A stretch of DNA of 54,801 nucleotides, taken from the NCBI GenBank assembly GCA_001002405.1, contig LCOA01000002.1:1-54801 (forward strand), read 5' to 3'. The notes beneath the pieces were generated by a model. It saw only the letters and a program-made list of their open reading frames with translations. It ran no database searches and was not told the DNA's origin. This document shows positions 1,937-45,712 of this stretch, piece by piece. The stretch's first letter is position 1. Each line of letters begins with the position of its first letter. The position numbers and the translations under genes are program-made. The DNA is from Candidatus Amesbacteria bacterium GW2011_GWA1_47_20 (GTDB taxonomy: Bacteria; Patescibacteriota; Microgenomatia; CAZETR01; Amesbacteraceae).

Positions 1937-1981
1937 AGTACCAGTTTATTACATTTTAACAGCTTTTCAAGTACCAGTTTA
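1937..1981. repeat. 12-nt direct repeat AGTACCAGTTTA x2 (1937-1948 and 1970-1981)
   Basis: Exact copies 33 nt apart. One abuts the ATPase ATG and the other contains the GT4 stop codon. Confidence 0.8.
1943..1970 (-). promoter_or_regulatory. Possible internal promoter upstream of the AAA ATPase gene
   Basis: Minus strand: TTGAAA (1970-1965), N16, TAAACT (1948-1943), N6, ATG 1936. Confidence 0.3.
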
Positions 1982-2968
1982 GTACTTATTCAGCGCTTCC
2001 TGGTAAACTTGCAAAGTTTCGGCAGCTGCTTTGGCCCAAGAAAACTTGGTAGCTTGGGTCGGGCCATGGTTGGATTTGGCGTTCTTGATAGCTCTGGCCA
2101 TGTCTTTAATGTCGGTGGGGTCAAAGTAAGTAGCGGCATCGCCGGCGACTTCAGGAAGCGAGGAGGTGCGGCTACAAGCCACGGGGGTGGCACAGGCCAG
2201 AGCTTCCACCACCGGCAGGCCGAAACCATCGGCTAGGGACGGCTGGCAATAGACAGTGGCCAAATTGTAAATATCCACCAGTTCTGCATCCGCTACAAAT
2301 CCCAACCGCCGCACATTTTGCAACGACATACCCTGCAAATGCTTCAGCTCCGGGTGGGAGAGGTCCATTTTTTCGAGTTCCTTGGCCTGACGGCCAACCA
2401 TAACCAACGGCAGTTTGGCTAGCCGAGCGGCAGTGATTAAATTGGGAATGTTTTTGTTGTAGTTGATGTCACCAGGCAGGTGGTATTTGTTTTTGGGTTT
2501 GGAAACATGTTTGAATATGGGATCAGCGGCTTCATATATCAGTTTGAGCTTGGCGTGGGGGATACCCAGATACTTGTAGATAGTTTTAACGCAATGATAG
2601 GAAACGGTGATCACCCGATCGACGTTGGCCAAAGCTAGTTTCTGCAACTGCAGATTGAACCAGCCGCGGATCCCCGGAGGAAAATGATCAGGAAATTCTA
2701 ACGGCATCACATCGTGGATTGTGACTATTGTTTTGGCATTCTTGATAATAGGCAGGGTGTGTTTAAAAAGATCGAAGTAAGGATAATGGATAATTTCTAA
2801 TTGACCTAATTGATCTAATCGACCTAAAGAATCAACTTCCAATATTTCGACGCCAAAGTTCTTTGCTTGTTTTTTAAGCTCTGGCAAGAGACGGCGAGTG
2901 TAGAAACCTACTCCGCGGACAGCGTTGGCGTCATGAAGGGGAGTCGTAACAAAACCAATTTTTATCAT
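1979..2968 (-). CDS. GT4-family (Glycos_transf_1) glycosyltransferase
   Basis: C-terminal PSLADGFGLPVVEALACATPV (EX7E-type motif). Preferred start is ATG 2968, which forms an ATGA overlap with the upstream stop; the track start 2983 is TTG. Confidence 0.8.
   Translation of the reverse strand: MIKIGFVTTPLHDANAVRGVGFYTRRLLPELKKQAKNFGVEILEVDSLGRLDQLGQLEIIHYPYFDLFKHTLPIIKNAKTIVTIHDVMPLEFPDHFPPGIRGWFNLQLQKLALANVDRVITVSYHCVKTIYKYLGIPHAKLKLIYEAADPIFKHVSKPKNKYHLPGDINYNKNIPNLITAARLAKLPLVMVGRQAKELEKMDLSHPELKHLQGMSLQNVRRLGFVADAELVDIYNLATVYCQPSLADGFGLPVVEALACATPVACSRTSSLPEVAGDAATYFDPTDIKDMARAIKNAKSNHGPTQATKFSWAKAAAETLQVYQEALNKY
2792..2828. repeat. 37-nt element built on a 9-nt period (TAATTGACC-like x3), copy A, inside the GT4 gene
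   Basis: aatttctaattgacctaattgatctaatcgacctaaa is 35/37 identical to 34542-34578. Encodes SLGRLDQLGQLEI. Confidence 0.9.
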
Positions 2969-3735
2969 AATGATCTTTGCCAATATTTAATGTAAGCCAT
3001 GGCGAGAGTGAGGCCGGAAAAGAGGGCGAAGACAAAGCCGGGGTAGCCATCTACCAGCCCCAAGTGACGGAAGTAGATTTTCAAAAAAGTGAGCAGAGGG
3101 AGCAAAATAAGATAATTAAGAGCATTGAGCAAACTAAGCTTTTCGTGGCGGGCTTGCATTTGGGAGGCAGCGAAAGACGAGTAGCGGTTAACGCCGTCTA
3201 AATACTTGGCGAAACTGGTGTCGCGGTAGTGCAGTAAATCGTGCTTAAGATGGCCGACCGGCCCGGTCACCTGCGCCTGCTCGTGCACGTCGGCTGCGGG
3301 AAGACGGCCCATTCCTTTGCGGTACAGGCGGAGGGTAGGATCGGGGTATTGGCCGCCTTTGGTTAAAAAACGAGTAAGAAACCAGTTTTTTCGATTCACC
3401 CAGTAGCCATTGAGTGCTGGGCGCTGAACGCTGAGCGTTGAGCGAATTTCGCTCGAGAGTTCGGGAGACACGACTTCGTCGGCGTCCAACTGAAGTATCC
3501 AGTCCCCGTGGGCCGCGTCGATAGCTATATTTTTGTTGATATGAAAGTTAGCCGGGTTTTCGCGAATAATAACCTTGGCATTATGTTTTTTGGCAATTTG
3601 CACCGTCTGATCCGAAGACTTGCCATCCACAACTACAATTTCGTCAGCGATATCTTTTACCGCCTCTAGACACCGGCCAATATTGTCCTCCTCATTATGG
3701 GTGGCCAGGACGACAGAAAGTTTAGGGGTTTTCAT
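2965..3735 (-). CDS. GT2-family glycosyltransferase (WaaE/KdtX-like subtype)
   Basis: LSVVLATHNEEDNI, VVVDGKSSDQT and QLDADE motifs. Paralogous to 27849-28598 and 29437-30276. ATGA overlap at 3732-3735. Confidence 0.85.
   Translation of the reverse strand: MKTPKLSVVLATHNEEDNIGRCLEAVKDIADEIVVVDGKSSDQTVQIAKKHNAKVIIRENPANFHINKNIAIDAAHGDWILQLDADEVVSPELSSEIRSTLSVQRPALNGYWVNRKNWFLTRFLTKGGQYPDPTLRLYRKGMGRLPAADVHEQAQVTGPVGHLKHDLLHYRDTSFAKYLDGVNRYSSFAASQMQARHEKLSLLNALNYLILLPLLTFLKIYFRHLGLVDGYPGFVFALFSGLTLAMAYIKYWQRSL
3423..3443. repeat. Heptanucleotide tract (GCTGAAC GCTGAGC GTTGAGC) in a GT2 gene
   Basis: Read directly. Encodes STLSVQR. Confidence 0.75.
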
Positions 3736-5408
3736 ATGTTTTTAAATTTATTAATCCATCTATTACAAAATTGGTCTGTAGACATAATTTCCGGCTTATA
3801 ATCGCTGTGATAATGGAACCGCCGCCAGTATGATAAGTCTGACGATGAGCAAGTTTCATCATTATATATTTTCCAAAGTGTACCGGTATCCTTTTGATCC
3901 TGAATTACAAGCTTATTCCCGCTAGGGGGTTCACAATTAATTCCAAACTGCACTACCAATGTGCCGGTTGGTAGTTGCTGTGGACAAATTTGGGAAATAT
4001 GTATTCGGTCGTAATTGTACGGACCAGATAAACTTATCAGCCTAGGTTTGTCGCCTAAAGTGGACTGTGAGAAATACATAACTTGCTGTAATACTTGTAA
4101 GGGCTGCGCGGCAATTACCGTTACTTCTCCGGAGGTTTTGATCAAATAATTAGCCAGTATTCTTTCTCCCAGAAAACCGGTCTCGGCGGCAGTGACAGGA
4201 TATTGATAGAAGAAAAAGTGGAGGAAATTTAAACTTAGAATGAGATAGCCCACAATAACGACGGGCAATAATTTTTTGTGGCTGGTAAATTTAGTTATCC
4301 CGGCAGCGATTAACAAGAGTAATCCCGGTAAAAAGGGTGCTCCTCTGTACATATTTGCGGGCAGGGAGTTGTTGACTAGAGTTCCCACGGGTCCTAGCGT
4401 TATCAAAAGCGCGGCCAAACTAATCCCGGGCATACCCATACCTAATCCTAGAGCCGAAAAAAACAAATCTGGTAAATAAGCTGCGCCATGGAAGGTCAAC
4501 CTCTGATTTGAGGACGGATCGCCTGAAAACAATAAATAATCCGGAGACCAATAATTCCAATATTTTTGGAGAAGTAGACGTGTGAATTCTGCTGGCTTGT
4601 TGAGAAAAATAAAACTAAATGGGTTGGAGATAGATGTCCGGCGGGCCGTGTCAATCGTTGCCCCAATTTGAGACCAGGTGGAAAGCCTGATTTCTTGGCG
4701 ACGACGGGAAAAGGTGCTTCCGGGGATAGTAAAGGCGAAATATATATACCCTGCCACAAATAGTCCGAACACGAGCCAAAAAATTATGGCTACAGAAATT
4801 TTGAATTTCTTTCTGGTAAATCCAAGCCAGATGGGCAAAATAAGTCCCATGATAATAGTAAATGGTTTAGTACCGTAGTAAGCCAGAAAGGCCAAATCTA
4901 AAAAAATAGCCCCCAAAAATGCAGCCAGGGCAGTGTTTTTCCAGAAGATGTTAAGCGATAACGAAATCAACAACAAGGCTAGTGGTGCTTGAGTTAGAGA
5001 GCGAGAAAATATAATCGACCACGGTGAATACAAAAACAACGCGAGAAATACCAATGCCAATTTTTTGTTTGCGGTTAGACGGTAAACAAGGATGGTCCAT
5101 AATAAAATTGTTAGTAAGTTGATTATGACCATGGGCAGGCGGGCTATGTATACATTCACCGGCAATAATCTTTGAAAGGGTGATAAGAGCAAGGAGAGGA
5201 GCGTGTCATCACCAGTTTCTACTTGGTTTTTTATAAGTGAGATAGGAAATTTTTCTCCCAGGGTATCAGTACCAAAATAGGCGTAGGACCTGGCGATCAT
5301 GACGGCATCCATTTCGTCATGATTAAGTCCTGGAGGTACTTGGTCCAACCATATAAACCGGATTATTACGCCTGGCAGCAGAACTAAAAAGAGAAGAAAA
5401 TATTTCAT
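3732..5408 (-). CDS. Divergent PMT/ArnT-like GT-C membrane protein (AT-richer paralog)
   Basis: Polytopic, 558 aa. First loop PPGLNHDEMDAVMIARSYAYFGTDTLGEKFP aligns to the WDEAALGYNAYSLLLTGRDE loop of its neighbours, with GRDE replaced by GTDT. Confidence 0.55.
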   Translation of the reverse strand: MKYFLLFLVLLPGVIIRFIWLDQVPPGLNHDEMDAVMIARSYAYFGTDTLGEKFPISLIKNQVETGDDTLLSLLLSPFQRLLPVNVYIARLPMVIINLLTILLWTILVYRLTANKKLALVFLALFLYSPWSIIFSRSLTQAPLALLLISLSLNIFWKNTALAAFLGAIFLDLAFLAYYGTKPFTIIMGLILPIWLGFTRKKFKISVAIIFWLVFGLFVAGYIYFAFTIPGSTFSRRRQEIRLSTWSQIGATIDTARRTSISNPFSFIFLNKPAEFTRLLLQKYWNYWSPDYLLFSGDPSSNQRLTFHGAAYLPDLFFSALGLGMGMPGISLAALLITLGPVGTLVNNSLPANMYRGAPFLPGLLLLIAAGITKFTSHKKLLPVVIVGYLILSLNFLHFFFYQYPVTAAETGFLGERILANYLIKTSGEVTVIAAQPLQVLQQVMYFSQSTLGDKPRLISLSGPYNYDRIHISQICPQQLPTGTLVVQFGINCEPPSGNKLVIQDQKDTGTLWKIYNDETCSSSDLSYWRRFHYHSDYKPEIMSTDQFCNRWINKFKNI

Positions 5409-6977
5409 CTAGTTGCTGATTATTTTGAAAGCCGGGCTACTATTTGGAAAATTAATGGTTTTAACTATATTAACACCTACGTCGGGAATGTCTTCGGGAG
5501 CGGCTACGATGAGCGAGGAGTGAATGTCGCTGACTTTGGACCAGGGCGTATCAGCAAAATGGAATTTGGAGTAATCGCGAACAGTGGAGAAATTGTATTT
5601 GTCCCGGAAAGTGAGAGAGTGATGACCTTGGAACTGTTGGGGCGGGTATTTGGAATAAAAGAGGAAAAGAATGTAAGGCTGATCGTACTTGTCGGTAACT
5701 AAGATCTTTTCATACCTGTCCTGAACCGACCCCACGTAAGCTACCAACTCTTTGAAGCCGTACTCCCAGGCGTAAGGATAAGTTTGAGGATAGTGAACGT
5801 AATACTGGTGCAGATATCTAGTTACTTGCCATAAATACACAAATCCCAAGACACAAATTCCAAATAATTTCCAATGTTTTAAAGTTTCAAAAACACCAAC
5901 CGAAATAAGGATAGTTAAGGGAATAACCATGGCGTGAGCGCGCAGGGCGTGGGGGGTTTGAAAAGTGATGGCGGAAGCGAGAGGGGCTACTAATAACCAC
6001 AACCATACCAATTTGGTCTTTGGTCTTTGGTCTTTGGTCCTTAGTAGATAGGCCGCGCCGAGGGCTAGAAAGATAAAATCGGTGAAGTAGAGAAGGCCGG
6101 TTTCGGGAACGCGGTTGCGGGGAATGACGTCGCCGTTGACAAACAGGAAATTGCCGAAGAAATGGTCGGTGTAATTTTCTAGAAATTGAATGGTGTACAG
6201 AACAGGACGGTTGTGCAAAACACGGGATAAGGGCGTGCTCCACCCCGGATGCTGGCCGCGCAGCTCCTTGGCCCGATTGAGAGGACCCTCATCGGCGAGC
6301 AGGCCTACTCCGGAGAGACGGGAAGCGGCATTAGTAGTAACTAGGTTATAGATTAGAGGGATTAGGAGTAAGAAACCAATGACCGAAGCTGTAAAAATGC
6401 GTTTGGGGCGGTAGAAAAGAAATAGACCTAAACCCAGGAGAGGAACAGTGAGGCGAGCAGATTGATAAAAATACATAGACAGCGCAAAGCTCAAAACGCA
6501 AAGCTCAAAACGTTTCTTAAGGAAGAGCCAGACGCCGATAAGCATGAGAGTGGTGGCGACGTTGACCTCCCAGCCGCCGCGGGAGAAATGCAAGTGCCAG
6601 GGGCTGATGGCCAACAGCAGCGCCGCCAGTTGACCAGTTTGCCAGTTGATCAGTTCTTTGGTCAAAAGATATACAAAGAGGACGGCCAGGATGCCGAAGA
6701 GGGCGGAGGGGAGGCGGACGGCGAATTCGGTGAGACCGAATATTTTGATGAAGGGCATGAGCAAGTAGGCGTAACCCGCGGGTTTGAAATCGCCGAAAGA
6801 TTCCAGATTCACCGGCCAAGGATGACCGTGCTCATCCCGACCGGTCAGAAGTAACGAGTAAGCGTTGTAGCCCAGAGCGGCTTCGTCCGCGTTCAAGCCT
6901 GCCGGAAAATCGGCCAGCCGGTAAAGGCGCAAAAAGGCGGCTAAAATTAAGACGAAAATAAGAATTATTTTTTTCAT
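5409..6977 (-). CDS. GT39-like (PMT/ArnT-type, GT-C fold) membrane glycosyltransferase, paralog 1
   Basis: LNADEAALGYNAYSLLLTGRDEHGHPWPVNLESFGDFKPAGYAYL, then ISPWHLHFSRGGWEVN, about 11 TM segments and a C-terminal soluble domain. Confidence 0.8.
   Translation of the reverse strand: MKKIILIFVLILAAFLRLYRLADFPAGLNADEAALGYNAYSLLLTGRDEHGHPWPVNLESFGDFKPAGYAYLLMPFIKIFGLTEFAVRLPSALFGILAVLFVYLLTKELINWQTGQLAALLLAISPWHLHFSRGGWEVNVATTLMLIGVWLFLKKRFELCVLSFALSMYFYQSARLTVPLLGLGLFLFYRPKRIFTASVIGFLLLIPLIYNLVTTNAASRLSGVGLLADEGPLNRAKELRGQHPGWSTPLSRVLHNRPVLYTIQFLENYTDHFFGNFLFVNGDVIPRNRVPETGLLYFTDFIFLALGAAYLLRTKDQRPKTKLVWLWLLVAPLASAITFQTPHALRAHAMVIPLTILISVGVFETLKHWKLFGICVLGFVYLWQVTRYLHQYYVHYPQTYPYAWEYGFKELVAYVGSVQDRYEKILVTDKYDQPYILFLFYSKYPPQQFQGHHSLTFRDKYNFSTVRDYSKFHFADTPWSKVSDIHSSLIVAAPEDIPDVGVNIVKTINFPNSSPAFKIISN
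6013..6040. repeat. Heptanucleotide tandem repeat (TTGGTCT x3 plus TTGGTCC) in GT39-like paralog 1
   Basis: Read directly. Encodes TKDQRPKTK. Confidence 0.9.
6483..6512. repeat. Perfect 14-nt tandem duplication (CGCAAAGCTCAAAA x2) in GT39-like paralog 1
   Basis: Read directly. Encodes FELCVLSFAL. Confidence 0.9.
6626..6657. repeat. Octanucleotide tract (CCAGTTGA CCAGTTTG CCAGTTGA TCAGTTCT) in paralog 1
   Basis: Encodes INWQTGQL. A 27-nt core (6621-6647) is identical to 12628-12654. Confidence 0.85.
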
Positions 6978-8533
6978 GGCAGTCCCACCACCCGCAGGCC
7001 CGGTGCGCCATTGGGATATTTAATATCCCCGAGCATAATCAGATTGGGAATGGTGGCTAAATCAGACTCCGGCAGTTCATAGCGGTCACCGATCAAAATA
7101 GTGGAATTGAGGAGTCGGTCGTCGGGCAGAAAGAGTGGACGGAAAATAAATTTGCCGAAGCGATCTACGTGGCCCACGTCGCCGACGGGGCTAACAGCTA
7201 ACTGGCTAAATGGTTGATAATCCCGGGGGTCGATCTGCAAGTAAAAGAGAGTAAAAATATACGGCTGGCCAAGTTTGTCGGAAAAGATGACTTGCCGGTA
7301 TTGGTCTAGATGCTGTTTGACGATAGCCAGAACCGGTTTGTAAGGATATACCATGTCCACGGCGGTGAAATTGGAGGAATGAATATAGAATAAATCAAGA
7401 TAATAGACTAAGAAAAACAAGAGTATGAGAGTATAAGAGTATAAGAGGAGACGCCGACGAGACAATTGGGCTAGACCCATACCAGAAACAATGACTAGCG
7501 GCACGAGAAGCGGCAAGGAGCGGACGCCGGAAACGAGGTCGCGCGAAAGGGCGGAGGGCAAAGGAGCCAGGAGCAGCCAAGCAATGAGAAGTTTAGTTAG
7601 TGGGTTATTAGTTCGGAGTAAGACGACGAGTCCGATAAGAATTGTAAGGATTTCCGGGAGGTGGAAGTAGCCATAGTATGCAATTGAGTGGCGCAAATTC
7701 TGCCAGTCTCCGGCGAAGAATAAGAAATATGGGGAGAGGTGGTTTAGATATCTTTGAAGTACGCCCCTGCCCTGGTCTATTAGTTCTAAGTGAAAAAGAG
7801 AAAAGAGAAAAGGGTTACCATTGTCCTGACGTAGGATTTCAGCGACCGTGTCCGGACGGCGGGTGTAACTGAAGACGCTGAAGACTTTGAGCCGACCTGA
7901 TTGGGAAGCGAAACCCACCAGAATTGGAAGTATGAGTAAGAGTAAGAGGAAGAGGGGTTTGACCAGTAATTTTATGGCTGGGCGATAAATTAGCAAGAGA
8001 GTTAACATGAGAAGCGGAGTGAACATCTTGGCCCCCTGATAAGTCAGGAGCGTCAGGCCAAAGAAAAGGGCGGATGTCAGATAGCGGCGGCGGATGAACA
8101 ACAGTGTTGCCAAGGTCGTAAGGGTGAGTGCCACATTGGCCTCCCAGGCACCGCGGGAAAAATACAGCGACCAGGGGTTGATGGCCAGCAACCCGGCGGC
8201 AAAGACATTTCTGGTGAGCAAGTAAACTACGATAATAAGAAGTACCCCAAAAATGGCCGAGGGAAGACGAGTGGCGAATTCAGTTAAACCCAAAACGGAT
8301 ATTGAGGGGACAGCCAGGTAAGAATATAGAGCCGGCTTGTAATCGCCGAAGGATTTGAGAATCAAGGGCATGACTTGGGCGTATTCATCCCGGCCGGTCA
8401 AAAACAGCGAATAGGCGTTGTAGCCTAGAGCGGCCTCGTCCCAGGTAAAACCCAATGGCCGGGAGTCTAAGTGAAAAAGTCTTAGTCCAAGGCCAAGTAA
8501 AAGTATGAACGCAAGAATAATTCTATTTTTCAT
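6974..8533 (-). CDS. GT39-like GT-C membrane glycosyltransferase, paralog 2
   Basis: GFTWDEAALGYNAYSLFLTGRDEYAQVMPLILKSFGDYKPALYSYL. Start ATG 8533 (MKNRIILAF...) is preferred by analogy to the paralog N-termini; the track start is 8557. Confidence 0.8.
   Translation of the reverse strand: MKNRIILAFILLLGLGLRLFHLDSRPLGFTWDEAALGYNAYSLFLTGRDEYAQVMPLILKSFGDYKPALYSYLAVPSISVLGLTEFATRLPSAIFGVLLIIVVYLLTRNVFAAGLLAINPWSLYFSRGAWEANVALTLTTLATLLFIRRRYLTSALFFGLTLLTYQGAKMFTPLLMLTLLLIYRPAIKLLVKPLFLLLLLILPILVGFASQSGRLKVFSVFSYTRRPDTVAEILRQDNGNPFLFSLFHLELIDQGRGVLQRYLNHLSPYFLFFAGDWQNLRHSIAYYGYFHLPEILTILIGLVVLLRTNNPLTKLLIAWLLLAPLPSALSRDLVSGVRSLPLLVPLVIVSGMGLAQLSRRRLLLYSYTLILLFFLVYYLDLFYIHSSNFTAVDMVYPYKPVLAIVKQHLDQYRQVIFSDKLGQPYIFTLFYLQIDPRDYQPFSQLAVSPVGDVGHVDRFGKFIFRPLFLPDDRLLNSTILIGDRYELPESDLATIPNLIMLGDIKYPNGAPGLRVVGLP
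7421..7447. repeat. Octanucleotide tract (GAGTATGA GAGTATAA GAGTATAA GAG) in paralog 2
   Basis: Read directly. Encodes LLLYSYTLIL. Confidence 0.8.
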
Positions 8534-10001
8534 AAACAATAAAGGCCGGTTGACCATCGAGGAAATTAAATGTGGTTATCTCCCGGCCAGAAATTTTACT
8601 CTCGGGGCTGGTGACAACGAGCGTGTTTGGTTTAAACGTCAGTTGGCCAATTTCCCAATCGTTGACAAAAGTAAATTTATCCAGAGCGTTGACCCAGTAC
8701 CAGTTGGCGTGGTAATCCCATTGCTTGCGGAGTTGAAAATCGGCCGGGTTCCAGGGCCAGAAATAGGCCACAAATTCATGCGGTTCGCCATATTTTTTGG
8801 TAAAGATAATCTGATCGTAATCGGAATAGCGCTGTTTGATAAATTGAACTACTTTAGAGTAACCATATTGCCAAGACTGCGAATAGTTATTACGATAACT
8901 ATTCGCGGATACTAGATAGTAGATAGTAGATATTAGGAGACCCACGAAGAAAAGAGCCTTAACATTACGGCCGAAGCGGTCCAGACCATGAGCGATTAAG
9001 AGCATAGACAGAGGCAGCATAGGAATGGCCCGAAGGACATGAGGCGCATCTCGCGTCAAACTACCGGCAATCGGCGCAAGTAACAGCCATGCCCAGGAAA
9101 TTTTATTCAGCTTTAATAACCCTAGGTAAAAAAAGGGCAAACTGACCAAATAAAGCAGGCCGAAGTTTTGGATGCTGAACTGATAATGATCGCCGCCTTT
9201 GAGGAAGAGAAAGTTGGGAGAGAAGTAACTTAAGTAATTTTGACCGAAACGGTAGAGAAAATAAGTGGCCTTGTTGTACAGCAGCCGGCCCCCAGGACGG
9301 GATTGCAGTTGATCGATTTGGGCAATGGCACCGGAATCCAGGATGGTCAACCAGCTTAGTCTAGCTTGACCGGAAGGAGAGAGAAGTTGGATAACCATGG
9401 GGATAAATAAGAAAGCTGTTAGCAGATAGCTAATAGTCGTTAGCTTGGGACGATGGAGAAAAAGATAGGCGAGTAAAAACAACGGGCTGAAGACGCGGGC
9501 GGAATTGTAAGCCCAGACGGAAAGCCCCAGAAATAAGATGCCCAAATTTGTCTTGCGGACCAGCAAACAGCAAATGCCTATGGCAATAAATAATGCACCC
9601 ACATTGGCTTCCAGAGCAATACGGGATATCCACCAGGTCCAAGGGGAAATGGCGACCAAGACGGCTGAAGTGAGGCCAACGAAGGGAGAAGCCAGCCGCC
9701 AGCCCAAAAGATAGGTTATGATGATGAGTAACGTGCCGAAGACGATTGACGGCAGACGAACGAAAAAGGGAGAAATAGTGGCCAGGTAAACGTAGATGGG
9801 TAATTTGTAGTCTCCAAAGCTTCTGAAAATTGTGGGCAAGATCGTCCCCCACTCGTCCCGACCGGTCTGAAGAAGCGAATACGCGTTGTAACCCAAAGAA
9901 ACTTCGTCCCAATTGAGGCTGGGAGGAAGGAAGTTGCTGGCTACCAGCCGCAGAATCAGGCCGGCCGCCGCAATAAGTAAAAGCCACTTAACGTGAGACA
10001 T
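8523..10001 (-). CDS. GT39-like GT-C membrane glycosyltransferase, paralog 3
   Basis: SLNWDEVSLGYNAYSLLQTGRDEWGTILPTIFRSFGDYKLPIYVYL. ATG 10001. 46-nt overlap with the upstream gene end. Confidence 0.8.
   Translation of the reverse strand: MSHVKWLLLIAAAGLILRLVASNFLPPSLNWDEVSLGYNAYSLLQTGRDEWGTILPTIFRSFGDYKLPIYVYLATISPFFVRLPSIVFGTLLIIITYLLGWRLASPFVGLTSAVLVAISPWTWWISRIALEANVGALFIAIGICCLLVRKTNLGILFLGLSVWAYNSARVFSPLFLLAYLFLHRPKLTTISYLLTAFLFIPMVIQLLSPSGQARLSWLTILDSGAIAQIDQLQSRPGGRLLYNKATYFLYRFGQNYLSYFSPNFLFLKGGDHYQFSIQNFGLLYLVSLPFFYLGLLKLNKISWAWLLLAPIAGSLTRDAPHVLRAIPMLPLSMLLIAHGLDRFGRNVKALFFVGLLISTIYYLVSANSYRNNYSQSWQYGYSKVVQFIKQRYSDYDQIIFTKKYGEPHEFVAYFWPWNPADFQLRKQWDYHANWYWVNALDKFTFVNDWEIGQLTFKPNTLVVTSPESKISGREITTFNFLDGQPAFIVYEK
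8913..8936. repeat. Heptanucleotide tract (TAGATAG TAGATAG TAGATAT TAG) in paralog 3
   Basis: Read directly. Encodes LISTIYYLV. Confidence 0.85.
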
Positions 10002-11455
10002 GCCAAAGCCACCAGACTGGTAATGTTGCCGATGGTGCGGACGGGGGTATCGGTAAACTTCAGATTAATTTGGGTGGCTAGCGGCACGCGGGCAATGATT
10101 AGGCCCATGGGGCCGGAGGGAAACAGCTCGACTTCAGCTTTCCAGCCCGGAAAATAGACAATCGGATATTGAATTTTTCGGTAGGAGTCGGTAGTGAGAA
10201 GTACCTGTGGCCCGGTAGGCGCAAAAGACGTGGGTAACTCGGAGGCGGAACGCGGCCAAAAATCGTTTAGGGCAGAAGAGCGCTGTTCGTCCCAGAGCGG
10301 GCCGGAAAATTGCTCACGGTCTGTGATGCTGCGCCAGATGTCTGGCTTGAAAAAGCCAGCGTTAAGCAAGAGCAGAAGAGCAAGAGAGCAGGAGAGTATA
10401 AGTTTATGCGAAACCACTTTGACTATAGCACCGGAGGAGAGGGCCAGAAAGAAGGAGGCGGGGCCCAAAAAGCGCCAAGGAAACTGGACATAAGCCAAAG
10501 GAGGAAAAAGCTTCCAAATAAATTCCGACTTGCCGTGAGTGAGAAAAACGGCAAAGAAGCCAAAGAGGGTAAACACGAGGGACTTTTTGCGAAGAAGAAG
10601 AAATAAGGGAACGAGCCATTGCAGGTAGCCCACAGAAAAACTCATGGTGTCGTTGGGGCCCCAGACGGAGCCGCCGTAGCCCCAAAAGCGGGAAACAAAC
10701 AGCTGCTTGAGAGTGGTCCAATGCAATTGATATGAGTAATAGTCAGTGGTGGTGCGGTTTAAAGTGACCAGATGACTTTCGAAAATCACCGGGAGTAGAT
10801 AAAAAGCGCTTAATAGAAAAACTGCGGCCCCGGCACCCAACAGTTGAAAAACGGGGATGGGGAATTTTCTTAACGCCCAAAAACCTAGGAAAGGAGCGAT
10901 CATGAGAGCCGAGAGATTGTGGGTAATGACCAGAATAGTGGCCGCAATGATCAAACCCCATAGATCACGCAGGCGCCGTCGGTCTAAAAAATTATCCAGA
11001 AAAAGAAAGATGAAAGGAAAAAGAGCCAAAGCATACGCCTCATTGAGCGAGCCACGGACCCACACGTCTACCGCCCGGTAAGGGGCGTAGACATAAAACA
11101 TGGCTGCCACCAGACTCCCTGGGTTGCCCCAATACTTTTTGCCGAGCAAGTACATGCCCACTGCCGAAACTAGGAGCGTGAGAATGAAATTGGCTTTGAC
11201 GGAGTCGATAATTTGCAATCCAAAGATATGAAATGCCTGACCGATCCAGTAAGGAAACTGGCCGTAGAAGTTAAAGACCGGCTCGCCGTAGCCCATCCCG
11301 GCGTCCGGCGCCCAACGGCAAGGAAATGCCTGACACTTGCTAAATTCAAACTGACGGAAGACGTGGAAATCGTGCATCGTAAAAATGCCGGAGCGGAACA
11401 TGAGAGAAAATGAGGGGATTAAGAGGATTAAGCAGATTAAGAGAAATTTGTTCAT
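9956..11455 (-). CDS. PTPS-related/YfhO-like polytopic membrane protein (putative GT-C-like)
   Basis: N-terminus MHDFHVFRQFEFSKCQAFPCRWAPDAGMGYGEPVFNFYGQFPYW matches the signature I associate with PF10131-type membrane proteins. Paralog of 33530-35188. ATGA overlap at 11452-11455. Confidence 0.55.
   Translation of the reverse strand: MNKFLLICLILLIPSFSLMFRSGIFTMHDFHVFRQFEFSKCQAFPCRWAPDAGMGYGEPVFNFYGQFPYWIGQAFHIFGLQIIDSVKANFILTLLVSAVGMYLLGKKYWGNPGSLVAAMFYVYAPYRAVDVWVRGSLNEAYALALFPFIFLFLDNFLDRRRLRDLWGLIIAATILVITHNLSALMIAPFLGFWALRKFPIPVFQLLGAGAAVFLLSAFYLLPVIFESHLVTLNRTTTDYYSYQLHWTTLKQLFVSRFWGYGGSVWGPNDTMSFSVGYLQWLVPLFLLLRKKSLVFTLFGFFAVFLTHGKSEFIWKLFPPLAYVQFPWRFLGPASFFLALSSGAIVKVVSHKLILSCSLALLLLLNAGFFKPDIWRSITDREQFSGPLWDEQRSSALNDFWPRSASELPTSFAPTGPQVLLTTDSYRKIQYPIVYFPGWKAEVELFPSGPMGLIIARVPLATQINLKFTDTPVRTIGNITSLVALACLTLSGFYLLRRPA
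11417..11443. repeat. In-frame 9-nt tract (GATTAAGAG GATTAAGCA GATTAAGAG)
   Basis: Encodes LLI-CLI-LLI in the N-terminal TM segment of 9956-11455. Confidence 0.8.
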
Positions 11456-12993
11456 GGGAGTTTTTGGGCGACTTTGATGGCCGGCCGGGAAGAGGGGTAA
11501 TCGATGTGGAAATATTCAGGGAAATCGGGAGAGAAATCTTCGGGTTTACCGATGTACAAGGTGGGGATTGAAACAGAATCTTGGGGGTAAATTACTCCAA
11601 ATCGATATTTACCCAGATAATAGCCGTCAAACTGATCCAGGAATTTAACATTCCGGGGCCAGTTCTGGGAAGCTTTCTGGTACTCTTGTGGGTCGAACTT
11701 GGTATAAAAAGCCACAAAGATATGGGGTTCGGAAAGCGAGCGGCTGAAGCGGACGTCCGAAAACCTGTCCGAAAAAGCCTGCAATCGGGGCATGAGCTCG
11801 CGCCAACCGTAAGACATAGAAGGAGCAATGACATACGGCGAATGATAAAAGTAATCTTCGGCAAAAAATACAAAACTGATAACGTAGGCCCCGAACACCA
11901 GGACCAACCAGCGCCGGGGAAGATGAGTTATGGCGGTAGCCAGAAGAATGATGAGCCAGGGAAGCATGATGACCGCCCGGTTGGCAGCGGCTCCCGGGCC
12001 TTTGGCCAAAGCTGCGGGAAGAGGAGCCAATAGAAGAAGGGCTATGAGAAGCGGGGAAATTTTGGGGCGCCGAATAATTAAATAAGCAAGGAGCGGCAGT
12101 TCAATTAAATAAAGCACTCCCCTGCCCGGCGACATGCCGTAAAAAGGTTCACCAGCACCGGAAGTGAATAGGAAATTGGGGGAAAAATAAGAAATGTAGT
12201 TTTGAGCTAGGATCGAAAAAGAATAAACTAATTTATTAGAAAACACGCGGGCGAATACGTCCGGTAAACCCTGGGCCCGGGCTTCGAAACGGCGAGTGGC
12301 TACCCCTAGCCAATTGTCGGTGGGGCTAAAAATGCTGACGTCGGCCACCCGAGCGGAAACCAAGCCTATGAGCGAAACTACTAGAGGAATAATTAATACA
12401 GGCTTGAATTTGTCCCGGAAATAAACGAACAGAACCACAAGAATCAACGGCAGGATTAACCTGGCTGAGTGATACGAGTAAGCGGCGGCGGTCAGAAACA
12501 GCGCGGAAAGCATGGGATGACTGTCGAGAAAAAAATACAGGCCCAGAGGTAAAAGAAAAGTGGCCAGATTGGCTTCGAATGCCCCGCGAGACATTTGAAT
12601 ATGCCAGGGGTTGATGGCCATCAGCAACGCCGCCAGTTGACCAGTTTGCCAGTTAATCAGTTTTTTGGCCAGAAGATACACAGCCGCGATGGCCAGAATG
12701 CCGAAGATGGCATTAGGCAAGCGGACAGCAAATTCCGTCAGACCGAGAATTTTGACCGATGGGATGGCGAGGAAAGCATACAGAGGCAGTTTGTAATCTC
12801 CAAACGAGCGCAGGTTGGTGAAAAACAGCTGCCACCAGGGGGTGCCCCACTCGTCCCGGCCAGTCTGAAGCAGTGAGTAGGCGTTGTAGCCGAAAGCCGC
12901 TTCATCAGGTGTGAATCCGGCAGGCAAGCGAGCTAGCCAAAGCAAACGGGCAAGTGATCCGATAACCAGGGCCACAATCAGTAAATGGCGCAT
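11452..12993 (-). CDS. GT39-like GT-C membrane glycosyltransferase, paralog 4 (operon head)
   Basis: GFTPDEAAFGYNAYSLLQTGRDEWGTPWWQLFFTNLRSFGDYKLPLYAFL. First gene of the long minus-strand operon; a -10 box lies 8 nt upstream of the ATG. Confidence 0.8.
   Translation of the reverse strand: MRHLLIVALVIGSLARLLWLARLPAGFTPDEAAFGYNAYSLLQTGRDEWGTPWWQLFFTNLRSFGDYKLPLYAFLAIPSVKILGLTEFAVRLPNAIFGILAIAAVYLLAKKLINWQTGQLAALLMAINPWHIQMSRGAFEANLATFLLPLGLYFFLDSHPMLSALFLTAAAYSYHSARLILPLILVVLFVYFRDKFKPVLIIPLVVSLIGLVSARVADVSIFSPTDNWLGVATRRFEARAQGLPDVFARVFSNKLVYSFSILAQNYISYFSPNFLFTSGAGEPFYGMSPGRGVLYLIELPLLAYLIIRRPKISPLLIALLLLAPLPAALAKGPGAAANRAVIMLPWLIILLATAITHLPRRWLVLVFGAYVISFVFFAEDYFYHSPYVIAPSMSYGWRELMPRLQAFSDRFSDVRFSRSLSEPHIFVAFYTKFDPQEYQKASQNWPRNVKFLDQFDGYYLGKYRFGVIYPQDSVSIPTLYIGKPEDFSPDFPEYFHIDYPSSRPAIKVAQKLP
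12633..12664. repeat. Octanucleotide tract (CCAGTTGA CCAGTTTG CCAGTTAA TCAGTTTT) in paralog 4
   Basis: Same tract and same protein position as 6626-6657. Confidence 0.85.
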
Positions 12994-12998
12994 GCAGC

Positions 12999-13031
12999 TT
13001 GATTATACGGGGGTGGCCAGCGTAATATCAA
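12999..13031. promoter_or_regulatory. Compact bidirectional promoter, each -35 overlapping the other strand's -10
   Basis: Plus strand: TTGATT (12999-13004), N18, TAATAT (13023-13028), N6, ATG 13035. Minus strand: TTGATA (13031-13026), N18, TATAAT (13007-13002), N8, ATG 12993. No SD on either side. Confidence 0.5.
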
Positions 13032-13034
13032 TTG

Positions 13035-14255
13035 ATGTGGCCGGGGATTGTAGCGGCGGGAGTGCTGGTAGTTAAGTTAGGATTGATGTTGGGGAAACCA
13101 TTGGGAGTAAGCGTGGCAATGGCTGAGACTTTTGGAAATTTGGGGTGGGGTGAGATGCAAATCAGAGTGTGGGGGTGGCTGGTGCAGGTGGTGATTGTGA
13201 TATTACTGGCCAAAAAAACTAGATCCGGATGGGTGGCGTTAATCGCCGCGGCTAATCCTTGGCTGAACACTATTTCTATGTGGCACGTATGGGAAACGAC
13301 AGCGCTGGCCGGCGCAGTCGGAGTGTGGGCGGCTAAGCACACGTGGCAAAAAGCGATAGGTGCAGTGGTTGTCGTATTGGCCTTGGCGGCCACTTGGACA
13401 AATTTAAGCAAAATTTCATCCGACAATTTAGCGGCCAAATTAAATTGGAATTTTTTGGGTCAGCAGGTAGACGAAATCCAGAAAATCAATTTCCAAGCCA
13501 CTCAAAAAAACTATATGCTTCCGGCAATTGTGCGCAAGATCTTATATAACAAGCCAGGATTGGCCTTAAATACGATTGTTCAAAGAAGCGTAGCGCTGAT
13601 GGATTTTGAGCAATGGACAGCACCACAGGCGGCCTGGACAGCGACCGGATTAAGCGGCCTACCGCCCAAAGGGTTGCTGCCCTTAATTTACTATTGGGAT
13701 ATCCCCTTGTTGATTTTTACGATCGTAATTTTTGACAAGAAGAGGGTGAAGTGGTGGCTAGTCGGTGGGTGGCTGGGGGGCATTTTTTTGGACAAGAAGT
13801 TTTTTACAGTTGGAGGAGTGTTGTTTATCCCGGCAATTGTGGTGCTGGTAGCCGAAGCCGTGAAACGTTTGGATAAGCGTTTGGTATTGGTACTATATCT
13901 AGCGGGCACAGGGTTTTTCTTTAAAGAAATGTTCTTCAATCAATTGAAGTGGCAATATTCGGACGTATATCTGTACCGACAGACGGCCATGTGGTTAAAA
14001 AACAACTTAGCGGCTGACGCGCGGGCGGCAGTGACAAACAAATTTGGGCCGATGGACGTGATGCTGAAATTTTACAAAGTGCTGCCGAATTCCAATATCG
14101 AAGTGGGTGAATTTACTCCCAGCCCCGGAAAAGTCTATATTGGATTGCCCAAAGAAATGCGGGGTATTCCGGAAGACAAAATCGTCACAAGAATTGAAGC
14201 GGATGACGAGCTGGTTTATGGATACGGAAAGGGCTTATGGATCGCAAAGTACTAA
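13035..14255 (+). CDS. N-terminally truncated GT39-like paralog lacking the catalytic first loop
   Basis: Aligns to the paralogs from the AANPW..W(E) region onward (ALIAAANPWLNTISMWHVWETTALAGAVGVW vs ALLLAISPWHLHFSRGGWEVNVATTLMLIGVW; LYNKPGLALNTIV vs LHNRPVLYTIQFL). It has no WDE...GRDE...SFGDYKP segment. ATG 13035 lies 6 nt after a TAATAT box. Confidence 0.6.
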   Translation: MWPGIVAAGVLVVKLGLMLGKPLGVSVAMAETFGNLGWGEMQIRVWGWLVQVVIVILLAKKTRSGWVALIAAANPWLNTISMWHVWETTALAGAVGVWAAKHTWQKAIGAVVVVLALAATWTNLSKISSDNLAAKLNWNFLGQQVDEIQKINFQATQKNYMLPAIVRKILYNKPGLALNTIVQRSVALMDFEQWTAPQAAWTATGLSGLPPKGLLPLIYYWDIPLLIFTIVIFDKKRVKWWLVGGWLGGIFLDKKFFTVGGVLFIPAIVVLVAEAVKRLDKRLVLVLYLAGTGFFFKEMFFNQLKWQYSDVYLYRQTAMWLKNNLAADARAAVTNKFGPMDVMLKFYKVLPNSNIEVGEFTPSPGKVYIGLPKEMRGIPEDKIVTRIEADDELVYGYGKGLWIAKY

Positions 14256-15628
14256 TCATTACTATTTTGGTAGTGGGAGCAGCGCTGCGGCTGGCTTGGC
14301 TGGATAAATCACCGGGGTCGGTAAATTGGGACGAGGCGGCCTTGGGCTACAACGCGTATTCTTTGTGGAAAACGGGGGCGGACGAATACGGAACAAAATG
14401 GCCGCTGGCTTTGCGATCGTTTGATGACTACAAACCCCCGCTGTATGCCTATTTAACGGCACCTGTCGTAGGAATATTTGGACTCAACGAAATAACCACC
14501 CGGCTGATATCTGCCCTGGCCGGGGTAGCCAGTGTTGGATTAGTGTATGTGATAGCCAAAAAACTGGTGGGGGAAAAAGAGGGATTGGTAGCGGCAGGGT
14601 TAATGGCAATTGAGCCCTGGGCGATTTTTTACTCCCGGGGGGCATGGGAAGCAAACTTGTCTCTGGCCGTATTTTTGACCAGCGTGTGGCTGATATTGAC
14701 CCGGCGAAATCTGGCCGGAATGATAATAGCCGGGATAAATGTTTTTTCTTATCATTCAGCCAAAATTTATTTGTGGCCGCTTTTAGTTTGGGGCCGGAAA
14801 AAGATGGGGGTGGTAATAGCAGTGGCGTTATTCACCATTGCCATGAGCAGTGGAGGATGGGCCAGGTGGACGTCCGCCGGAGGGAACTGGTGGGAGGCGG
14901 GCCAGAAATATTTCTCGTATTTTTCCCCGGCTAATCTGTTTGTGCGGGGTACGCCAGAACTTAACCAGCGGGTGGACGGGTTTGGCCTATATTATGGATG
15001 GGAGATATTTGCCTGGGCTATCGGGCTAGTGTGGCTGGTTAGGAATTGGCGGGAGAATAAAATTTTGGCTATGTGGCTAATCCTGGCTCCCCTACCGGCA
15101 ATCATTACCAGGAGCTGGTTTAACCCGGTGCGGGTGCTGCCATTGTGGGTTGCTCATACCATACTAGTTGCCATCGGCCTGCGGCGACTGACTGGCTGGC
15201 TGAAGATAATTATTGTCCCCTGGGCCGTAATTAACCTGGCGTGGTTTGGGTTGGCAGTCTTGTGGCAAATGCCGTACAGCCGTTACGGCGACTGGCAATG
15301 GGGGTTTAAAGAAGTGGTGCAGATTATTTCACCGGTATTGGACAAATATGATCAGGTGGTGTGGGAAACCGGACAGGCTCAACCATACATCTTCGCTTTG
15401 TTCTACCTGAAATATCCGCCGGAAGAATATCAGAAGGCACCGCGCCAGGGTTATGACTTCGGTAAATTTGTATTCCGGAAAATTTATTGGCCGGACGATA
15501 GAAATTTGAAAAATACTTTGTTTATTGGAGGAGTGTATAGCTTGCCGGAAGAGGGGGCTATCGGGAGAACCTGGGATCCGCAAGGATACGAATCAGCCCG
15601 TATACAAGCAACCCCCACACAACCATAA
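14237..15628 (+). CDS. GT39-like GT-C membrane glycosyltransferase, paralog 5
   Basis: SVNWDEAALGYNAYSLWKTGADEYGTKWPLALRSFDDYKPPLYAYL. 19-nt overlap with the preceding truncated paralog. Confidence 0.8.
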   Translation: MDRKVLIITILVVGAALRLAWLDKSPGSVNWDEAALGYNAYSLWKTGADEYGTKWPLALRSFDDYKPPLYAYLTAPVVGIFGLNEITTRLISALAGVASVGLVYVIAKKLVGEKEGLVAAGLMAIEPWAIFYSRGAWEANLSLAVFLTSVWLILTRRNLAGMIIAGINVFSYHSAKIYLWPLLVWGRKKMGVVIAVALFTIAMSSGGWARWTSAGGNWWEAGQKYFSYFSPANLFVRGTPELNQRVDGFGLYYGWEIFAWAIGLVWLVRNWRENKILAMWLILAPLPAIITRSWFNPVRVLPLWVAHTILVAIGLRRLTGWLKIIIVPWAVINLAWFGLAVLWQMPYSRYGDWQWGFKEVVQIISPVLDKYDQVVWETGQAQPYIFALFYLKYPPEEYQKAPRQGYDFGKFVFRKIYWPDDRNLKNTLFIGGVYSLPEEGAIGRTWDPQGYESARIQATPTQP

Positions 15629-43565: not shown

Positions 43566-45712
43566 TTTCCAGAGGGATTGTGAATAAGGCGGAATACTTT
43601 TACTCCCCAGGGAAATTCCCATTGGCGGTCAATTTTGGCCCAGCCAAAAGCGGCCACCTCCCACAAAGGATTATTTATGGGCTCGCACACCGGATCTTCG
43701 CAAATAACAAACAGCTGATCTGCCAATTTTTGGTGAATGGTGAAATACGGGGTGCCATAAATATCTAAGAAATACCGGTAGCCCAGGTCGTAATTCGTTT
43801 TGGCCAGAAGGGCCAGGTTGAATGGCCGGGCGGCTGATTGATCGGTCACAAATCTGGCAATTTCCCGGGTGTGAGCCAGCTGATTGTTGGGCGGGTAGCG
43901 CAAGGGAGAATTCAGCAAGGCAGCCGCGATTAGCACTATCAGCACAATAGCCCCGGTTTTTTTAAATTTTTCTACAACAAAGCCCAAAAGTAAAAACGGA
44001 GCCGGAAACAAAAATCCATAGTAATGATCATAGATATGCTGCTTATACAGACCTAGCCCAATTAAACCTACCCCCATCCAGACGGTAGTGAACCAAAAAT
44101 CTTTGGAAGGGCGGTGTTTAATTAAATAAATTAATCCGCCGATCAATAAAATTCCCATGGCTACACCCAACGGCTTGGACTTGGCAGCAAGAAGAGAGGT
44201 GTTGATATCTACCCACAGCGGCCAAAGATTGGGTAAGGCTTTGTAGGCTTTGAGATTAACTGTGGTCTGTCGATCGGCGAAGAAGGTGGTGATGGCCCGG
44301 GCATTGATCCAGCCGTGACGCATGTCAAACCAGAGAAGAGGAGACATGAGCACTGCAAAAACCAAGACAGCGTAGAGCGTATAGCGTTTAGCGTCTAGAG
44401 GTTTACGCGCCAGGAACCAGAAAAGACCCACGACGGGGAAAAGGAGTAGGCCTAAGTAATGAGAGTTGAGAACGAAGGCCAAAGAGGCTGCGGAAATGAC
44501 TAGCCAGCGCCAGTAGCCTAAACGCCAGACTTTCCAAATGCCGTACATGGATAGAAGCGCAAAAAAGGGCATAATATTGGGATTCCAAGACGAACGAGAA
44601 TAGGTGATAACTGTGGGAGATAGAGAGTAGAGAGTAGAAATTAGGAGGGCCGGAACGCGGCCAAACCATTGGCGGCCGATCCACCACAAAAGGGCCACGG
44701 TGGCCACACCGAACACAGCCACCATAATTGCCGGGCCCACTGGCGAGAATTGAGATAAAGATAGAGGAATAAGAAGTAAGTAATAATATAAGGGACCAAG
44801 ATACATATTGCCGATGGATGTGCCCGGACCAATAAGGGTGAATTTGCGGCCCAAAAGCATATCCCGGACGACGGCCACATCCCGACCTTCATCGCCTAAG
44901 AAAGTCATATACTGATCGATTTTGTTCAGCCGGACAAAAACCGCTAACGCCAAAACCGCCACTATGGCCAAAGCTTCCCAACGGAAAATTGCCCGACCTT
45001 GTTCGACTAATATCTCCTGTTTTAATTGCCACCAATATATAGCCAGTTCGCGCCAGGCTTTAATCCAAACTTTGGGATTACCACCCGTGGCTGTCCCGGC
45101 GGTTCTGGGCAAATGAGTCACGGGCATTTCGGCAATCTTCATGCCCCGGGCTCGTATCCCCGCCAACAATTGAGTATCAATCATCGCCCCGTCGGAAGGA
45201 ATACTCACCCGGCGCAAAACGTCCCGCTTGAATACTTTGAATCCGCAATCAATATCGGAGGCCAGGTATCCGAACAGGGCCCGGATGCCCGTGTTCCATA
45301 ACCAGCGGACAAATTTACGATGCAAGGGATCGCTATCGTTGGCTCTGATTCCAGAAACCATGTCTGCCTTTTCGGTTTCCATCTTTCTTAAAAGATCCGA
45401 AACTTCGGAAATATCAAACTGATTGTCCGCGTGAGTCATGACAATTAATTCCTTGGTGGCGGCTTTGAATCCGGCTTTGAGGGAGCCACCGTAGCCGCGA
45501 TTGGGGCGGTTGGTGACGATTTTCAAATTGGGGATTTTTTTGACAAAGCTTCTGGCTATCTCACCAGTTCTGTCCGATGATCCGTCATCGACCAAAATTA
45601 TTTCGGCGTCTAATTTAAGTTTTTTGGTGACGGCGGATACCGAAGTCAGGCATTTGGCGACATTCTCTTGTTCATTGTAGGCGGGAATAACTATCGAGAC
45701 GCCTTTTGACAT
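43562..45712 (-). CDS. Fusion protein: N-terminal DPM1-like polyprenyl-phosphate glycosyltransferase (GT2) plus C-terminal GT-C-like membrane domain
   Basis: N-terminal part: VSIVIPAYNEQENV, ILVDDGSSDRT, THADNQFDISE and DIDCGFKVFKR. From about residue 250: FLGDEGRDVAVVRDMLLGRKFTLIGPGTSIGNMYLGPLYYYLLLIP plus about 12 TM segments. Operon head. Confidence 0.75.
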   Translation of the reverse strand: MSKGVSIVIPAYNEQENVAKCLTSVSAVTKKLKLDAEIILVDDGSSDRTGEIARSFVKKIPNLKIVTNRPNRGYGGSLKAGFKAATKELIVMTHADNQFDISEVSDLLRKMETEKADMVSGIRANDSDPLHRKFVRWLWNTGIRALFGYLASDIDCGFKVFKRDVLRRVSIPSDGAMIDTQLLAGIRARGMKIAEMPVTHLPRTAGTATGGNPKVWIKAWRELAIYWWQLKQEILVEQGRAIFRWEALAIVAVLALAVFVRLNKIDQYMTFLGDEGRDVAVVRDMLLGRKFTLIGPGTSIGNMYLGPLYYYLLLIPLSLSQFSPVGPAIMVAVFGVATVALLWWIGRQWFGRVPALLISTLYSLSPTVITYSRSSWNPNIMPFFALLSMYGIWKVWRLGYWRWLVISAASLAFVLNSHYLGLLLFPVVGLFWFLARKPLDAKRYTLYAVLVFAVLMSPLLWFDMRHGWINARAITTFFADRQTTVNLKAYKALPNLWPLWVDINTSLLAAKSKPLGVAMGILLIGGLIYLIKHRPSKDFWFTTVWMGVGLIGLGLYKQHIYDHYYGFLFPAPFLLLGFVVEKFKKTGAIVLIVLIAAALLNSPLRYPPNNQLAHTREIARFVTDQSAARPFNLALLAKTNYDLGYRYFLDIYGTPYFTIHQKLADQLFVICEDPVCEPINNPLWEVAAFGWAKIDRQWEFPWGVKVFRLIHNPSGK
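44617..44644. repeat. Heptanucleotide tract (GAGATAG AGAGTAG AGAGTAG AAATTAG) in the GT2-GT-C fusion gene
   Basis: Encodes LISTLYSLS. Resembles the tract plus TTAGGAG flank at 8913-8940. Confidence 0.8.

Follow-up and report, generated by a model that had tools for sequence, protein, structure and literature searches.

The 41 bases at 12994-13034 of the window, the 54,801-nt stretch of DNA that was analyzed here, separate two divergent genes for membrane sugar transferases and contain two interlocked promoter-like pairs of hexamers. The best explanation of this spacer, to which we give a probability of about 0.65, is that it is an overlapping, back-to-back pair of σ70-type promoters whose mRNAs would be leaderless or nearly so. 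The window is the entire contig C2 of a 692-kb Microgenomates genome, the assembly of which is 92% complete.

Re-reading of the sequence reproduced exactly the hexamers, spacers, overlaps and coordinates of the original prediction. On the plus strand, the elements read TTGATT-N18-TAATAT-N6-ATG, in which the N6 is CAATTG and the ATG lies at 13035. The minus strand reads TTGATA-N18-TATAAT-N8-ATG, with its ATG at 12993-12991. The plus -35-like hexamer (TTGATT, 12999-13004) matches TTGACA at four of six positions, and the plus -10 hexamer (TAATAT, 13023-13028) matches its consensus at four of six with TAnnnT kept. The minus elements are closer to consensus, at five of six positions for the -35-like hexamer (TTGATA, 13031-13026) and all six for the -10 hexamer (TATAAT, 13007-13002). 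The -35 of each strand overlaps the -10 of the other by 3 nt, at 13002-13004 for the plus -35 and the minus -10 and at 13026-13028 for the minus -35 and the plus -10. All four hexamers fall within 33 bp (12999-13031). Both -10 hexamers have the T1, A2 and T6 of σ70-type elements, and on both strands a TTGnnn hexamer was found within 16-18 nt upstream of the -10, in each case at 18 nt. This spacing exceeds the canonical optimum of 17 in both promoters, which counts against them, and neither -10 is preceded by a TGn extension. With 20 G+C in 41 nt, the spacer is not A+T-rich. The frame upstream of each gene is closed by an in-frame TAA inside that gene's own -10, so that neither ORF can be longer, except via TTG 13032 on the plus side.

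The first minus gene (11452-12993) encodes a GT-C membrane glycosyltransferase of 513 aa (Pfam PMT_2, E = 1.3e-7). Behind it lie seven further minus-strand genes (1979-11455) for GT-C paralogs and for GT2 and GT4 enzymes, overlapping by 0-46 nt, and neither a -10 nor a Shine-Dalgarno (SD) sequence of its own was found before the start of any of the seven. The minus-strand operon is shorter than the proposed 13 kb: the tightly packed run extends from 12993 to 1979, which is ~11 kb and eight genes. The run of minus-strand glycosyltransferase genes is broken by a gene for an AAA_14/DUF4143 ATPase (620-1936, together with the stretch 1937-1978, minus strand). The ATPase gene has a promoter of its own, TTGAAA-N16-TAAACT-N6-ATG.

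On the other side, the first plus gene (13035-14255) encodes a divergent GT-C-like membrane protein of 406 aa with no Pfam match. It overlaps by 19 nt the second plus gene (14237-15628), which encodes an intact GT-C protein (PMT_2) of 463 aa that is 33% identical to the product of the first minus gene (E = 1e-63). The relation of the first plus gene to the GT-C family is visible only through its family homologues, in comparison with which ~50 aa of the first loop and ~40 aa further on are missing. The missing part of the first loop is the place of the GT-C acidic catalytic motif. The gene had been described as a truncated paralog of its neighbour. This description did not hold, as the protein has internal deletions rather than an N-terminal truncation and BLAST detected no significant similarity to the neighbouring protein. 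Despite the deletions, the protein is 72-73% identical over its full length in two genomes of the same genus, G001 and G003; it is therefore kept, but is probably not an ordinary transferase. The product may act together with the intact transferase encoded next to it, as a partner without catalytic activity.

G003 and G001 are collinear with the window across the spacer, at ~75% DNA identity. In a three-way alignment of 1.25 kb, 59% of the positions in the coding flanks were invariant, and 27-30% of the third codon positions. The two longest invariant runs in the entire 1.25 kb coincide with the promoter elements. One, at 13023-13045 (23 of 23 positions), opens with the plus -10 and spans the minus -35, CAATTG, the ATG and three codons; the other, at 12998-13009 (12 of 12), spans the plus -35 and the minus -10. 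Between them lies the variable, G+C-rich centre of both 18-nt spacers (13010-13022), of which 6 of the 13 columns were invariant and the length was constant. The distance from the minus -10 to its ATG, 8 nt in the window (12994-13001), is 9 nt in both congeners, with an indel and substitutions, and a purine lies 2 nt ahead of the minus ATG in all three genomes. Comparison of the spacer with related genomes, proposed as a check with the original prediction, thus found the promoter blocks and the 18-nt spacing kept in G003 and G001. This pattern is the footprint that would be expected of two hexamer pairs around a sequence-free spacer. The conservation of the -35 hexamers is not independent evidence because each overlaps the opposite -10.

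The exact geometry was found in only three independent sequences among the genomes compared and the metagenome contigs. In a pattern scan of the metagenome contigs, one from Hainich groundwater was identical to G003, and two A+T-rich chance matches were returned. The plus-gene protein, used as a query for more relatives in the genome contigs, led to none that were confirmed. The third congener, G002, was considered as a fourth promoter sequence and set aside: its ortholog of the minus gene is operon-internal and is uninformative on the promoter. There, a co-directional GT-C-like ORF stops 1 nt before the ortholog's ATG (L005 ~2237-2241), and the divergent partner gene is missing from the genome.

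In three other genera of the family, represented by G015, G020 and G024, the gene pair was again divergent, and the GT-C side read TATAAT-N6-GTG in all three. A TTG at N17-18 preceded this TATAAT in two of the three relatives (TTGGCC at N18 in G020; TTGCAA at N17 in G024). The spacers themselves differed. That of G015, at 26 nt, has adjacent -10 boxes, with TATATT-N7-ATG before the plus gene and no TTG at 16-18 nt. In the 28-nt spacer of G020, the -10 boxes overlap by 4 nt, and the TTGGCC at N18 belongs to the minus promoter. The 65-nt spacer of G024 (L018 860-924) contains a single palindromic TTGCAA at -35 distance in both directions, leftwards in TTGCAA-N17-TATAAT-N6-GTG and rightwards in TTGCAA-N18-TAGAGT-N6-GTG. 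Judged from these spacers, the two predicted leaderless starts are kept across genera while the architecture turns over, and the reciprocal -35/-10 overlap is specific to the window's genus.

The positions of the -10 boxes were compared with start signals throughout the genome using a crude set of 685 ORFs, each taken at its greatest length and together covering 89% of it, and a -10 criterion of TAnnnT with at least four of six matches to TATAAT. Such a box began 12 nt before the start (N6, the modal distance) of 11.4% of the ORFs, as against 0.4% of internal in-frame ATGs. The corresponding figures were 5.9% and 1.1% at 13 nt, and 3.5% and 0.3% at N8. Among first-in-operon ORFs, as defined by the GeneMarkS-2 rule, 31-37% had a box at N6-N8. 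The aligned logo of the 169 candidate leaderless promoters was TGTGnTAnAAT, with almost no -35 information on average. SD tetramers were not enriched genome-wide, occurring before 7.8% of the other ORF starts and 9.6% of internal ATGs. None of GGAG, GAGG and AGGA was present in the 20 nt before either ATG of the locus. The original prediction had named a clear SD-dependent start further downstream as evidence against it; no SD signal showed at the two starts of the locus or in the genome at large. The 3' end of the 16S rRNA, with the anti-SD sequence, was not found anywhere in the genome's own assembly, in which the 16S rRNA is only partly assembled. The 16S rRNA match (contig C12, 47274-47713; L012) ends at model position 546 and the contig continues for 665 nt; the break could be an insertion, common in this radiation, or a misassembly.

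A TANNNT motif starting ~12 nt before the start codon is an in-silico mark of leaderless genes (Zheng 2011, PMC3160421), as is a Pribnow box 6-8 nt from the start codon in group C of GeneMarkS-2 (PMC6028130). In Mycobacterium tuberculosis, starts at most 5 bp from the start codon were counted as leaderless (Cortes 2013, PMC3898074). At the locus, the box lies at N6 on the plus side and at N8 on the minus side, the latter at the edge of the leaderless range, being N9 in the congeners and a minority distance in the genome. According to the same positional signal and the lack of SD sequences, the genome resembles the leaderless genes of Actinobacteria and Deinococcus-Thermus (PMC3160421, PMC6028130, PMC3898074). 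It differs from them in that the host is a small-genome member of the Microgenomates, in the candidate phyla radiation, and in that its -10 carries a TGTGn extension. A full-text literature search found no description of leaderless expression in Microgenomates. Overall, gene expression in this genome appears to be based largely on leaderless mRNAs.

We then considered whether the -35 hexamers are used. Among the 169 candidates, a TTG at 16-18 nt was present in 25% of the promoters that lack TGn and in 9% of those that bear it, as compared to 6% of random positions (Fisher p = 0.009); the enrichment of the TGn-less promoters over random positions is thus four-fold. The commonest -35 hexamer among the TGn-less leaderless promoters with a TTG was TTGACA, and 9 of these 26 promoters had a spacing of N18. 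One further leaderless promoter of the genome has TTGATT at 16-18 nt as well. By these data, the genome appears to use a -35 where the TGn extension is missing. Since both promoters of the locus are without the TGn extension that is usual in this genome, they probably depend on their -35 elements.

It is somewhat unlikely, if a serious alternative, that only the two -10 boxes act, independently of any -35, and that the TTGs are by-products of symmetry or of other constraints. The locus would then still be a divergent leaderless pair, but without a functional -35/-10 interlock. The near absence of information in the -35 region of the averaged logo is consistent with this possibility, as are the dictation of three of the six letters of each -35 by the opposite -10 and the G015 pair, in which the -10 boxes adjoin and a TTG at 16-18 nt is absent. 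Several observations argue for functional -35 elements instead. Both promoters belong to the TGn-less class that is enriched in TTG, and both TTGs are kept without change across three genomes in which ~70% of neutral sites have changed. A TTG also stands before the same gene's TATAAT in G020 (N18) and G024 (N17). Finally, among 400,000 random 41-mers of the genome's composition, both -10 boxes at N6-N8 occurred at a frequency of 1.2e-3, and both boxes together with a TTG at 16-18 nt on both sides at 2.5e-6; once both -10 boxes are present, both TTGs are therefore expected by chance in ~0.2% of cases.

As to the factor that would read these elements, a sigma factor of ~375 aa that includes region 3 (regions 2-4) is encoded in all three congeners and in 23 of the 27 family genomes searched, the window's own assembly included among the 27. 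That 92%-complete assembly yielded no primary sigma factor, with its regions 2, 3 and 4, but only a sigma factor of 165 aa that has regions 2 and 4 (contig C16, ~14369-14866; L029 1471-1968). The missing primary sigma factor is probably due to an assembly gap.

Both assigned start codons are supported by the N-termini of homologues and by codon-position conservation. The N-terminus of the minus gene (MRHLLIVALVIG...) aligns with those of the homologues in G015, G020 and G024 and of paralog P0003, and its third codon positions are the least conserved, at 27% invariant. The N-terminus of the plus gene (MWPGIVAAG...PLGVSV) likewise aligns with the N-termini of its homologues in these three genomes. 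ATG 13035 alone among the start codons of the plus gene is conserved in the three aligned genomes and lies at N6. Starts at TTG 13032 and at the internal ATGs of codons 19, 30 and 43 were rejected on these grounds.

A second match to a promoter on the minus strand, TTAACT-N17-TACAAT (13075-13047), raises the possibility that a more distant promoter, inside the opposite gene, gives one or both genes a leadered transcript, the nearby hexamers being unused. This site was rejected as an alternative minus promoter: its score is only 9 of 12, and the congeners do not conserve its -10, the corresponding bases being ATTGTA in the window, ATTACT in G003 and ATTGCT in G001. Moreover, a leadered mRNA would lack an SD, and the conserved blocks of the spacer would be left unexplained. 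We consider such distant promoters very unlikely.

According to the favoured reading of the locus, a back-to-back promoter pair, the start directed by TTGATT-N18-TAATAT should fall on the A of ATG 13035, 7 nt after TAATAT, or on an adjacent position. The message would be truly leaderless and would carry the degenerate GT-C-like gene followed by the intact GT-C gene. Transcription from TTGATA-N18-TATAAT should start within 12995-12993, at G 12995 or A 12993, to yield a message with a leader of 0-2 nt for the ~11-kb operon of eight glycosyltransferase genes. The original view that both ATGs stand at leaderless distance is upheld for the plus gene, at N6, and needs modification for the minus gene, where the N8 (N9 in the congeners) makes a leader of 0-2 nt likelier than none. 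A minus mRNA with a 2-nt leader may be translated less well than one with a true 5'-AUG.

The geometry of the locus also bears on how the two promoters would interact. The footprint of RNA polymerase in E. coli extends from about -55 to +20. Two such footprints would nearly coincide at the locus, so binding in the two directions would be mutually exclusive: one bound polymerase, in either direction, would cover the whole opposite promoter. From the sequence, then, we infer the start sites, the use of the -35 elements, and this exclusivity with its consequences. The weight of mutual exclusion depends on polymerase occupancy. At shared promoters of E. coli, competition was found only at high promoter activity, after one direction had been strengthened or activated (PMC12825309). 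In addition, a polymerase leaves negative supercoiling behind it that can stimulate the partner promoter, as for ilvYC (cited in PMC4469952).

The two conserved blocks form an imperfect inverted repeat, TTGATTATA-N15-TAATATCAA, and are complementary to each other at seven of nine positions. The repeat could in principle be mainly an operator for a dimeric regulator, conserved for the binding of that regulator. Overlapping divergent promoters of model bacteria do often contain a regulator site, as in Tn10 tetA/tetR and in ilvY/ilvC. However, symmetry of this kind arises automatically from two opposed promoters, and the centres of the half-sites lie 28 bp from each other, an unusually large distance for a dimer. 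No regulator is encoded on either side of the spacer. In addition, the repeat finder reported no such pair and no further inverted repeat, and the motif occurs only once in the window. We therefore hold a primary function as an operator to be highly improbable.

In a consensus promoter scan with a cut-off of 9/12, the minus promoter scored 11/12; the plus promoter, at 8/12 (4/6 + 4/6), fell below the cut-off and so was not listed. The scan found three promoter-like sites in 3 kb, where 3.2 were expected, so a single promoter match is meaningless on its own. The joint configuration is far from chance. Despite the lack of enrichment of promoter-like sites in the 3-kb region, chance resemblance in an A+T-rich spacer is extremely improbable in view of the rate of 2.5e-6 in random 41-mers, the invariance of the promoter blocks in the congeners and the near-balanced base composition, 20 G+C in 41 nt.

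The promoters and translation starts of the candidate phyla radiation have received little study, as the organisms are uncultured. The locus is a tidy example of a long-known class, the overlapping divergent promoters, and not a new mechanism; the observation of SD-less, largely leaderless expression in a member of the Microgenomates may prove more useful. It can be put as a rule on sequence: a -10, often TGTGn-extended, 6-8 nt before the start, no SD, and a -35 if the TGn is missing. This rule should improve start-codon calling in candidate-phyla-radiation genomes. It is also an illustration of the extent to which the DNA between genes can be reduced where both messages are leaderless. If polymerases do compete over the shared 33 bp, two glycosyltransferase operons would be coupled with no regulator involved. 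A broader proposal, which we regard as speculative and quite unlikely, is that in this Microgenomates lineage translation is SD-free and at least a third of operons are leaderless, so that divergent genes would share promoter-only spacers of 14-65 bp. Exclusive polymerase binding at the locus would then act as a protein-free either/or between two glycosyltransferase operons and lead to cell-to-cell variation in surface glycans, the promoter of the pair having been rebuilt in four geometries across genera (26, 28, 41 and 65 bp).

Two classes of divergent promoter invite comparison. In that described by Warman, Forrest, Wade and Grainger, the starts are 7-25 bp apart across overlapping -10 elements (bioRxiv 10.1101/2020.01.31.928960). 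The locus is like these promoters (bioRxiv 10.1101/2020.01.31.928960; PMC12825309) in having pseudo-symmetrical DNA and, as predicted, divergent transcription in which one orientation excludes the other. By contrast, its predicted starts, at 13035 and at 12993-12995, are 40-42 bp apart and its -10 boxes are separated by 15 bp: promoters of the Warman type share their -10s, whereas here each -35 overlaps the opposite -10. The same genome does contain clear candidates for that type. Of its 90 pairs of neighbouring divergent ORFs, 14 carry a -10 at N6-N8 before both genes, and in eight of these the start codons are 14-24 nt apart with shared or overlapping -10 boxes. The eight are at 45712/45727 in the window, 10350/10365 in C5, 4141/4159 in C17, 9637/9658 in C11, 9690/9711 in C14, 4708/4731 in C10, 7764/7787 in C9 and 27420/27445 in C6; one of the sequences reads CAT-GC-TACAATTGTA-TC-ATG. 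These short pairs are putative bidirectional promoters of the Warman type, with both genes predicted to be leaderless. A TTG -35 on both sides was found only at 12994-13034 among the divergent pairs of the genome.

The closer likeness is to overlapping back-to-back divergent promoters, in which core elements overlap, as each -35 at the locus does with 3 nt of the opposite -10. The class was reportedly reviewed by Beck and Warren in 1988, and Tn10 tetA/tetR is one example. Others are ilvY/ilvC and fepA/fes of E. coli (PMC4469952) and Pc/Pr of plasmid pLS20 (PMC4207663). As in ilvY/ilvC, fepA/fes, Pc/Pr and tetA/tetR, the locus has opposed σ70-type promoters with overlapping polymerase sites and predicted starts a few tens of bp apart, and both steric competition and coupling by supercoiling are possible. 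In the known cases, the mRNAs usually carry leaders, one of the flanking genes encodes a regulator, and an operator lies in the shared region. At the locus described here, by contrast, both mRNAs are predicted to be leaderless or nearly so, glycosyltransferases are encoded on both sides, there is no evident regulator, and the space between the genes is taken up entirely by promoter elements.
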